Shown here one piece after another: positions 1 to 640 of a DNA stretch of 1,565 nt. Numbering within the stretch: the stretch's first letter is position 1; each line of letters begins with the position of its first letter. This DNA is from Escherichia coli. Its GTDB lineage: Bacteria > Pseudomonadota > Gammaproteobacteria > Enterobacterales > Enterobacteriaceae. The position numbers were made by a program, and so were the translations under genes. Where the stretch lies: NCBI RefSeq assembly GCF_024223415.1, contig NZ_CP100510.1. The stretch is one strand, 5' to 3'. The notes beneath the pieces were generated by a model. The model was not told the origin of the DNA. It saw nothing but the letters and a program-made list of their open reading frames with translations, and ran no database searches.

Positions 1-585
1 ATGTGCAAATGTAATACCGTCACCCGCGACGATATTCCGTTTGCCATCTGGTCAGGGCTTCGCCCCGACACCCCGCATCAGTGCGTACGTGCTCAATGTG
101 GTTTCCGGTTCTCTTCCGCTTCCTCGCCCACTCGCTCACTAACGTTCGGTCGCTGGGGCTGCGGCGAGCGGTGCCACCTCTCGCATGTTGTCGGTGATTC
201 CGCTGTTGTTCTTTCGGGGATAAGTCGTCAGATAGCCCTTCAAACGCGCTCAGAAGCTCTCAGACGCACGAAACGGGGTTTAAATGCCCGTCAGGGCATG
301 GAAGGCGCGAAAAACGCTTACAGAGCGTTTCAGGAGGTCAGGCGCGCCGATACCCCTAGCCAGGGGCTTTCAGGTCGCCAGGAACCGCGCCAGCCCCCTG
401 CAAAGCCCATTTGCACGGTACAGGCAGCCACTCGGTTGGTAGGTGGTCGTAGACCGTCGGTGTTACAGCGATGGGGGTCTGGGGTTCTCCCCAGACGGTT
501 TCCGGTTGCGCTCAAGGCGCTGCCGGAACCGTGGCGGCTCGATCGTTCTGGAGATCGGGGAGCAAAAACACGCAAGGGATTTTGA
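1..585 (+). CDS. Longest ORF (194 codons), of doubtful coding status; hypothetical protein only if real
   Basis: An ATG at position 1 opens a frame that runs to TGA at 583-585. Against coding: the product is Arg/Gly/Ser/Pro-rich and low in complexity. It uses many rare codons (aga, agg, ata, cta, cgg). It also runs straight across blocks that are non-coding in ColE1-family plasmids (111-172) and across the stem-loop cluster at 477-559. It is listed only because gene callers may report it. Confidence 0.15.
   Translation: MCKCNTVTRDDIPFAIWSGLRPDTPHQCVRAQCGFRFSSASSPTRSLTFGRWGCGERCHLSHVVGDSAVVLSGISRQIALQTRSEALRRTKRGLNARQGMEGAKNAYRAFQEVRRADTPSQGLSGRQEPRQPPAKPICTVQAATRLVGGRRPSVLQRWGSGVLPRRFPVALKALPEPWRLDRSGDRGAKTRKGF
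50..74. repeat. Perfect 25-bp inverted copy of the oriT-proximal hairpin element (partner at 1386-1410)
   Basis: ggtcagggcttcgccccgacacccc (50-74) is the exact reverse complement of ggggtgtcggggcgaagccctgacc (1386-1410). Identity stops on both sides. Confidence 0.9.
111..172. other. ColE1-type conserved block downstream of oriT (region of the primosome-assembly / single-strand initiation hairpins in ColE1-family plasmids)
   Basis: ctcttccgcttcctcgc (111-127) and ggctgcggcgagcggt (157-172) are identical to the pBR322/pUC strings ctcttccgcttcctcgc...ggctgcggcgagcggt. The interior is similar but diverged. A long-range stem pairs 116-119 plus 124-128 with 163-171, leaving a 4-nt bulge. Assignment as a pas/ssi site relies on homology of position in ColE1 and is not demonstrated here. 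Confidence 0.4.
477..559. other. Three adjacent stem-loops (RNAI/RNAII-like fold) in the part of the ColE1-like backbone where antisense copy-control RNAs would map
   Basis: SL-A pairs 477-484 with 489-496 (8 bp, loop ttct). SL-B pairs 497-511 with 517-530 (one bulge, one mismatch, one T-G, loop tcaag). SL-C pairs 538-544 with 553-559 (7 bp including one T-G, 8-nt loop). The two T-G pairs would be G-U only in plus-sense RNA. I could not identify a clear promoter or T-run terminator on either strand. Confidence 0.25.
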
Positions 586-622
586 GGCGGCAAAAGAGCA
601 ATGCAGGATAGACAACCCGATG

Positions 623-640
623 TCAAATGTTAACATTTGA
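623..640. repeat. 18-bp perfect palindrome tcaaatgttaacatttga
   Basis: Every position from 623 to 640 pairs with its mirror position, and the centre is GTTAAC. It lies in the intergenic gap between the ColE1-like region and the 3' end of rep. On the minus strand, TTGACA (complement of 621-626) overlaps its edge. Confidence 0.9.

Follow-up and report, generated by a model that had tools for sequence, protein, structure and literature searches.

The 18-bp palindrome of a 1565-bp Escherichia coli Col(MG828) plasmid is very probably the centre of an IncX4-type oriT inverted repeat

Introduction

Two functional oriTs of the plasmid R6K are said to have been described by Avila et al. in 1996. The presence of two oriTs in long inverted repeats, one near taxC and the other near the replication gene beside ddp3, is regarded as a hallmark of IncX plasmids (PMC3402527), and the nic sequence TATCCTG/C (the slash marking the nick, here and below) was tabulated for the IncX plasmid pMAS2027 (subgroup P3) at each of its two oriTs (PMC7755788). 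The nick consensus of the MOBP family is (C/T)ATCCTG(C/T), and the sequence TATCCTGC is identical to the nick sequence of RP4 (PMC3772185). Among small E. coli plasmids, pBuzz and pCERC7 were found to contain acquired I-complex oriTs (Moran & Hall; PMC11389934), the relaxase-less 'pOriT' plasmids carry copies of the oriTs of conjugative plasmids (Ares-Arroyo et al. 2023; PMC10123127), and relaxase-less small plasmids sometimes carry two captured oriTs in inverse orientation (PMC11389934; PMC10123127). The staphylococcal pWBG749 family contains oriT subtypes whose specificity is set by the ribbon-helix-helix protein SmpO, and each subtype is copied by small non-conjugative plasmids (PMC8136818).

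The present study deals with a perfect palindrome in a 1565-bp stretch of E. coli DNA, the whole of which is called the window. The palindrome can be assigned with high confidence to an IncX4-type oriT; more specifically, it very probably lies at the centre of the inverted repeat in an oriT of the IncX4 type (R6K family, MOBP), on a plasmid that is without transfer genes of its own. This reading is based on the identity of the surrounding block with IncX4 plasmids, its position upstream of taxA-taxC in those plasmids, the architecture shared with R6K and the covariation of the inverted repeat with TaxA.

Results

The plasmid and its palindrome

The window was found to be a complete circular 1565-bp E. 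coli plasmid of replicon type Col(MG828) with one gene, an HTH Rep gene at 687-1166 on the minus strand (159 aa). It was identical over its full length (100%) to many E. coli records, for example NZ_CP059129.1 (pEc45_4), which is typed as Col(MG828), contains 1 annotated gene and is labelled 'non-mobilizable' by MOB-suite. The sequence TCAAATGTTAACATTTGA at 623-640 is its own reverse complement, a perfect 9+9 palindrome. It is the longest perfect palindrome in the circular window, as the original prediction had stated, followed by runners-up of 12 and 10 bp, and it lies where that prediction had placed it, between the G+C-rich left part and the rep stop codon. When the window was shuffled with its dinucleotides preserved, a perfect palindrome of at least 18 bp appeared in 24 of 5000 trials (0.5%); shuffling of the local 161-bp stretch gave one in 7 of 5000. 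A chance origin is unlikely, the number alone not being overwhelming.

Upstream of rep, two 25-nt direct repeats were found at 1242-1292, which are 92% identical and each near-palindromic (TAGCTCACACATGCGTGAGCTA), and three iteron-like repeats of ~21 nt at 1186-1251 adjoin them. The repeats at 1186-1292 presumably represent the Rep operator and origin, unrelated to the palindrome.

Anatomy of the block

The palindrome was found to lie in a block at 598-686, running from CAATGCAGGATAG to GCCTGCCGCTGGCTC, which on its IncX4 homology is read as an IncX4-type oriT module with the minus strand as the predicted nicked and transferred strand. The block contained the nick-region core TATCCTG/C (TATCCTGC) at 603-610 on the minus strand, directly next to an imperfect inverted repeat (hairpin) of 40 nt at 611-650, with arms at 611-630 and 631-650. 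This extended dyad (GACAAC...GATTGTC) was found to contain GACAACCCGATG-TCAAATGTT in the first arm followed by AACATTTGA-ATCAGATTGTC in the second, with one bulged base (G622), and the base of its stem, GACAA(C/T)C / GATTGTC, was conserved. The palindrome occupies the centre of the inverted repeat and is, from covariation, the predicted site of the N-terminal ribbon-helix-helix-like module of TaxA. The left flank half-site CCGATG (617-622) pairs with the right flank half-site ATCAG (641-645), and both are predicted, from covariation at TaxA residues ~56-60, to be the site of the second ribbon-helix-helix (NikA-like) module.

A small hairpin, CAAAAAC-GGG-GTTTTTG, was found at 651-667, which is kept in the IncX4/X7 oriTs and deleted in the class F relatives described below, followed by the conserved distal end of the module, GCCTGCCGCTGGCTC, at 671-685, beyond which the small-plasmid sequences diverge. 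In IncX4 plasmids the 671-685 element lies 12-20 nt upstream of the start codon of taxA or ddp3. The original prediction had proposed a site for a dimeric protein or a hairpin/cruciform site at a module boundary, and this stands to the extent that the dyad falls in a self-contained ~90-bp module ending at GCCTGCCGCTGGCTC; the oriT identity, the extension of the dyad to 611-650, the adjacent TATCCTGC and the IncX4 copies of the block had been missed.

Read on the minus strand, the block contained 5'-GACAATCTGATTCAAATGTTAACATTTGACATCGGGTTGTC-TATCCTG/C-ATTGC-3', and the motif YATCCTGY was found once in the linear window (603-610, minus strand; 0.12 expected). The predicted minus-strand nick falls between G604 and C603. 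Folded as single-stranded DNA, 611-650 of the minus strand forms an 18-pair hairpin (-10.8 kcal/mol, z = -5.3), and the wider fold of 596-690 gave z = -4.5. The hairpin, read from 650 to 611, ends 7 nt before the predicted nick on the nicked strand; in RP4 and R64 the distance from nick to stem is 8 nt.

Match to IncX4 and R6K origins of transfer

In a BLAST search of PLSDB, window bases 593 to ~688-698 were found to match conjugative IncX4 plasmids of ~33 kb, many of which carry mcr-1, at 92-96% with an identical palindrome. With the ~100-bp block as the query, 450 conjugative plasmids were matched, mostly at two places each. NZ_KY075655.1 (L104) was found to contain inverted copies at 1310-1405 and 27830-27919, 95% identical over 90-96 nt, both with the identical 18-bp palindrome. 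The copy at 27830-27919 stops 14 nt short of taxA (27312-27815), behind which comes the relaxase gene taxC, and the copy at 1310-1405 lies between the pir operon and a DUF2726 gene. The window was found to differ from the IncX4 block by four substitutions, at 616, 659-660 and 683, of which 616 falls in the nick-proximal arm. With C616 (T in IncX4), the minus strand still pairs through a G.T wobble but the plus strand would have a C-A mismatch, which fits selection on the transferred strand.

In R6K, CGATGCAGGATAG was found to be directly followed by an inverted repeat of ~50 nt (GGGCAAACGCCG...CGTTTGCCC) upstream of ddp1 and again upstream of ddp3. The 11-nt sequence ATGCAGGATAG is present in both R6K oriT copies and in the window, and in IncX3 a long inverted repeat, unrelated in sequence, comes directly after it, in front of ddp1 as well as ddp3. 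The arrangement with an inverted repeat directly 5' of the nick core was the same in R6K, IncX3 and IncX7. The window thus resembles the IncX oriTs (R6K alpha and beta; TaxA/DDP1, TaxC/DDP2 and DDP3; MOBP3) in that ATGCAGGATAG is followed by an imperfect inverted repeat of 40-50 nt. In contrast, the inverted-repeat sequences of R6K and the window are unrelated and only the nick region of ~11-13 nt is common to both, so that homology searches seeded with R6K could miss oriTs of the IncX4 type. On these matches, ATGCAGGATAG and the architecture are common to the window and the experimentally defined R6K oriTs, and the full sequence is common to the window and the IncX4 subgroup.

The IncX oriTs are located upstream of taxA/ddp1 with a second inverted copy beside pir/ddp3, and two inverted copies were found in NZ_KY075655.1 and R6K, whereas the window contains a lone copy and no tax genes. 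The single copy is no argument against function, as the two-copy layout defines the conjugative parents and not a captured oriT.

Other oriT-like modules of the plasmid

A stretch across the circular junction (1553-1565 and 1-75, minus strand; 88 nt) was found to be 99% identical to NZ_CP107045.1 (IncI-gamma/K1), in which the matched DNA ends 14 nt upstream of nikA-nikB, and is a putative R64/IncI-type oriT. On its minus strand it contained ...TTTGCACATCCTG/TCCC, a second YATCCTG/Y motif that is split by the start point of the window, and bases 1-75 were matched by ~1770 conjugative plasmids. The plasmid pKL1 is a 1549-bp cryptic E. coli plasmid of the Col(MG828)-type family. A table citing oriTDB gives an oriT of pKL1 with nic CATCCTG/T.

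On the plus strand, 1381-1449 was found to match at 92-100% the ColE1-type oriT (bom) by mobC/mbeA in ColRNAI plasmids (...GGAGTGTATACTGGCTTA). Within it, GGGGTGTCGGGGCGAAGCCCTGACC forms inverted repeat I1 with 50-83 (34 nt, 88%), so that the R64-type and ColE1-type oriTs would face each other, as in pBuzz. Three oriT-like modules, of the IncX4, R64 and ColE1 types, thus appear to be present on the 1565-bp plasmid. A further stretch at 114-265 (CTTCCGCTTCCTCGCCCACTCGCTCACTAACGTTCGGTCGCTGGGGCTGCGGCGAGCGG) may serve in primosome assembly or single-strand initiation. Over 86 nt it showed 90% identity (82% for the match as a whole) with intergenic DNA that lies upstream of pir in NZ_CP038303.1, a segment found in some IncX4 plasmids with two inverted copies in the locus; with the DNA immediately past bom in ColE1-type plasmids the identity was 83%.

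Hairpin classes among relatives

Plasmids of 1552-1823 bp were aligned as relatives, and 19 genome contigs and 78 metagenome contigs were collected. The flanks GCAATGCAGGATAGACAA and GATTGTCC were found to be conserved, the nick core and the base of the stem being unchanged, and the inner 27-28 nt fell into distinct classes; as the left flank was part of the search pattern, its conservation in the contig sets is not independent evidence, which comes instead from the conjugative plasmids found by BLAST and from R6K. Class A is that of the window. The inner part was found to contain ...TCAAAATGTTAACATTTTAT... in class B, ...AAATTGCATGCAAT... in class C, ...TATGCTAGCAT... in class D, ...AAATGGGTACCATTT... 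in class E and ...GAACGTTAACACGTAGCCCC... in class F.

In classes A-E the pairwise identity of the inner parts was 43-79%, and 10-13 of 13-14 positions were dyad-complementary, which was matched by at most 29 of 2000 composition-preserving shuffles (arm against arm). The structure is kept and the sequence is not, which points to a hairpin or a symmetric protein site with diversified specificity. Class F, the commonest class in the close 1552-bp relatives, was complementary at 8 of 14 positions, no better than shuffles, its symmetry being lost, and the 21-bp segment with the small hairpin was missing. The element can thus decay in the Col(MG828) family, and selection on it may be inconstant. 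RNAalifold, run on 15 hairpin variants, recovered only the outer stem, the inner parts having been aligned out of register by MAFFT. A DnaA-box or primosome (ssi) hairpin was rejected, as CAATCCACA was found only in classes C and D and not in class A.

Lack of conservation among close relatives had been named in the original prediction as the result that would speak against the palindrome. The exact palindrome was indeed found to be replaced in the close 1552-bp relatives and is exact in IncX4; in most other classes the replacement is another palindrome, and such a test would have misled. The variant of the window was found in independent isolates and metagenomes.

Small plasmids of 2.0-2.9 kb with a class E IncX-type oriT were also found (L046, L055, L079 and PLSDB NZ_CP069665.1, 2255 bp). 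They carry their own taxA (ddp1) without a relaxase, in parallel to the pCERC7-type plasmids that encode their own NikA. Right after GCCTGCCGC(T/A)GGCTC, the plasmids contained the 3' end of the present rep, at least five other unrelated continuations or, in IncX, taxA/ddp3; the end at 671-685 thus marks the boundary where the oriT cassette was joined to different backbones. The near-identical ~1.5-kb copies of the family (L005-L023) were short contigs, several with contig names that indicate very low coverage, and the assemblies bear labels such as Rhizobium, Streptomyces, Corynebacterium, Nocardia, Clostridium and Flagellimonas; one copy is listed in PLSDB under Corynebacterium renale (NC_004833.1). 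These odd host labels most likely reflect contamination with E. coli and not true hosts.

TaxA as candidate reader of the inverted repeat

Between two class A IncX4 plasmids, one of them NZ_KY075655.1, and a class B one, TaxC was found to be 100% identical and TaxA 90% identical, and the 17 differences in TaxA all fell in residues 15-59 except one at residue 94. In the class C plasmids TaxA was 62-73% identical (IncX4/X7 comparison). The hairpin classes thus track the accessory protein TaxA and neither the relaxase TaxC nor the Rep of the small plasmid, which suggests that TaxA is the protein reading the inverted repeat.

Residues 54-81 of TaxA were found to match Pfam NikA-like (29.3 bits against a cut-off of 27) and, more weakly, Arc, and the N-terminal 47 residues gave weak matches to NikA-like and RHH_7 (E 0.016-0.18). 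In the AlphaFold model of TaxA (pLDDT 74.6), an extended segment with two helices occurs twice, the helices being 10-22 and 28-37 in the first unit and 62-74 and 79-91 in the second, and a long helical hairpin comes after the second unit; this predicted secondary structure would fit two ribbon-helix-helix units. A Foldseek search of the PDB with the model gave no significant match (the relaxosome accessory factor PcfF at E = 0.62), the PDB sequence search gave nothing significant, and an internal repeat was not found in TaxA by BLASTP.

Covariation was examined in 12 distinct TaxA/oriT pairs, that is, TaxA variants with their upstream DNA. The N-terminal strand KMIAFRL was found with the centre GTTAAC in 3 loci, K(Q/E)(I/V)KFRL with GG(T/G)ACC in 5 loci and in the pseudogene locus L122, KNVCFRL with GCATGC in 2 loci, and KQILFRL with GATATC or GCTAGC in 2 loci, this last strand type (KQILF) being the exception that pairs with two centres. 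The second strand (V/I)KTCL was found with the flanks ATGG/CCAT in 5 loci, V(F/Y)TYL with CTAG-type flanks in 5 loci, and VSVRL with the flanks CCGATG/ATCAG, those of the window's class, in 1 locus. The centre type (GTTAAC, GGTACC, GCATGC and others) was thus found to covary with TaxA residues 3 and 5, and the flank type with residues ~56-60. The Rand index was 0.985 for the N-terminal strand against the centre and 1.0 for the second strand against the flank, each reached in 0 of 20000 permutations of the 12 pairs, values that overstate independence because the pairs are phylogenetically related. When the N-terminal strand was set against the flank instead, or the second strand against the centre, the agreement stayed at chance level (p ~0.4-0.5), which argues that the two parts of the inverted repeat and of TaxA have been reassorted.

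The protein that binds the palindrome is most likely, from this covariation, the TaxA of a co-resident IncX4 plasmid, neither a host factor nor Rep, and binding of the 18-bp centre by the N-terminal module of TaxA is favoured with moderate confidence. A wider proposal is put forward only tentatively: the IncX4/X7 inverted repeat could be a two-part address read by a tandem DNA-binding TaxA, its central 4-6 bp by the N-terminal strand (residues 3 and 5) and its flanks by the second ribbon-helix-helix strand (residues ~57 and 59), and the parts could have been reshuffled into many transfer-specificity subtypes. The Col(MG828)-type plasmids with matching copies, some with their own taxA, together with R64- and ColE1-type oriTs, would then be able to hitchhike in three ways, with the window's class A copy matched to the IncX4 lineage of mcr-1.

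Alternative readings of the palindrome

A promoter or operator that overlaps the palindrome, formed by TAGACA-16-TGtTAACAT on the plus strand or by TTGACA on the minus strand, is an unlikely identity for it. The consensus scan lists both, at 609-636 on the plus strand (with TG before the -10) and at 633-605 on the minus strand, and taxA directly follows the block in IncX4, where the plus-strand candidate would drive taxA and be repressed by TaxA. Autoregulated promoters embedded in oriT occur in IncP and IncI systems. Both sites, however, contained only 9/12 matches, with 3 promoter-like sites found against 1.2 expected from shuffles, and the -10 and -35 hexamers were lost in the class C and class D hairpins. 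Transcripts from either candidate in the window would run antisense to rep or into the G+C-rich region, and, antisense rep aside, no downstream gene is present in the window on either strand. The minus-strand TTGACA (626 to 621) and the poor -10 'cattgc', to which the original prediction had drawn attention, are both present, but the hexamer was absent in classes C and D and was TTGACC in classes B, E and F, whereas the parts related to function were conserved; it is read here as a by-product of the class A sequence. A promoter could be a secondary role in the IncX4 parent, where a taxA promoter would be overlapped by the predicted TaxA site, and not an alternative identity to the oriT inverted repeat.

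The second alternative accepts the oriT origin and takes the window's copy as vestigial, copied from IncX4 and no longer functional, with a palindrome that persists only through recent acquisition. The class F relatives, with a decayed distal arm and no small hairpin, the four substitutions against IncX4 and the MOB-suite label of the identical record would all agree with it. It is nevertheless quite improbable, since the nick core is intact, as are the palindrome over its full length and the two flank half-sites, the sole change in the stem keeps a G.T wobble on the nicked strand, and the same variant recurs in independent isolates and metagenomes. A functional oriT copy in the window is the likely case.

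A terminator for rep, or a bidirectional terminator between the modules, would draw on the strong regional fold (z -4.5) and on the fact that, on the minus strand, the hairpins follow the rep stop codon at a distance of 20-75 nt, but is very improbable. At 600-690 the terminator scan was negative, the large hairpin has an A+T-rich stem, as does the small one, and is without a T-run after it, the IncX4 block, placed before taxA and ddp3, has the reverse relation to its neighbouring genes, and hairpin classes that track TaxA are unexpected for a terminator.

A binding site of the plasmid's own Rep, or an Xer-type or other site-specific recombination site, as a perfect dyad at a module junction with different right-hand modules joined just beyond 685 across plasmids might suggest, is hardly tenable, because there is no similarity to the iterons at 1186-1290, the block is also present in IncX4 plasmids with an unrelated initiator, and the same Rep type was found with classes A, C and F (classes C and F with a Rep of ~86% identity, class A with Reps 87% and 100% identical to that of the window). 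A Rep operator was rejected on the same ground, the hairpin class being independent of the Rep type, which also agrees with the earlier statement that the palindrome is unrelated to the Rep boxes. An Rfam scan of the whole window (E <= 1) gave two chance-level matches and no RNAI/RNAII family, which led to the rejection of a ColE1-type antisense RNA loop.

Discussion

The element is best read as a standard MOBP oriT inverted repeat, an element of a known kind, and not as a promoter, a Rep site or a new system; the palindrome itself would be explained by textbook conjugation as part of the inverted repeat beside a relaxase nick site. In the proposed mechanism, a co-resident IncX4 plasmid would supply the accessory protein TaxA, the relaxase TaxC, the coupling protein and the type IV secretion system. 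TaxA would bind the inverted repeat with its N-terminal ribbon-helix-helix-like module on the 18-bp centre and its NikA-like module on the flanks, and bound TaxA would position TaxC so that the minus strand is nicked 7 nt beyond the stem, at TATCCTG/C (G604 and C603). The minus strand would then be transferred 5' to 3' with the inverted repeat entering last, and the inverted repeat, folded as a hairpin, would help the relaxase to re-ligate the strand.

The 1565-bp plasmid is on these grounds probably mobilisable by IncX4 plasmids, which would mean that a very common 'non-mobilizable' cryptic plasmid of E. coli can be moved by the main vehicles of mcr-1. As it seems to contain little beyond a replicon and three different oriTs, it would be a minimal hitchhiker in a clean form provided by nature. 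A recognition code for TaxA that can be tested directly is obtained from the covariation, which, by analogy with the staphylococcal pWBG749 plasmids, also suggests a diversification of oriT subtypes in the Enterobacteriaceae. In the literature searched, the coverage of which was incomplete, no report was found of an IncX-type oriT on Col(MG828)/pKL1-type plasmids, of covariation between TaxA and oriT, or of three oriTs on Col(MG828).

NikA contains one ribbon-helix-helix. The block resembles the oriTs of RP4 (IncP) and R64 (IncI1), with their accessory proteins TraJ and NikA, in that YATCCTG/Y lies 7-8 nt from an inverted repeat bound, or here predicted to be bound, by a small accessory protein and in that TaxA matches Pfam NikA-like, but no sequence similarity was found between their inverted repeats and that of the window. 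Unlike NikA, TaxA appears from its model to contain two DNA-reading modules and a helical C-terminal domain.

The pWBG749/SmpO system is alike in that oriT subtypes are found in a conjugative family, with specificity by an accessory factor and mimics on small plasmids. The phylum, the relaxase family and the sequences are different, and specificity was determined there by binding and transfer assays, whereas here it is read from covariation. With pBuzz, pCERC7 and the pOriT plasmids the window shares the layout of a relaxase-less small plasmid with captured oriTs, among them a putative oriT of the R64 type; it differs from them in that its palindrome-bearing oriT is of the IncX4 type and in that three oriT types appear to be contained in 1565 bp.
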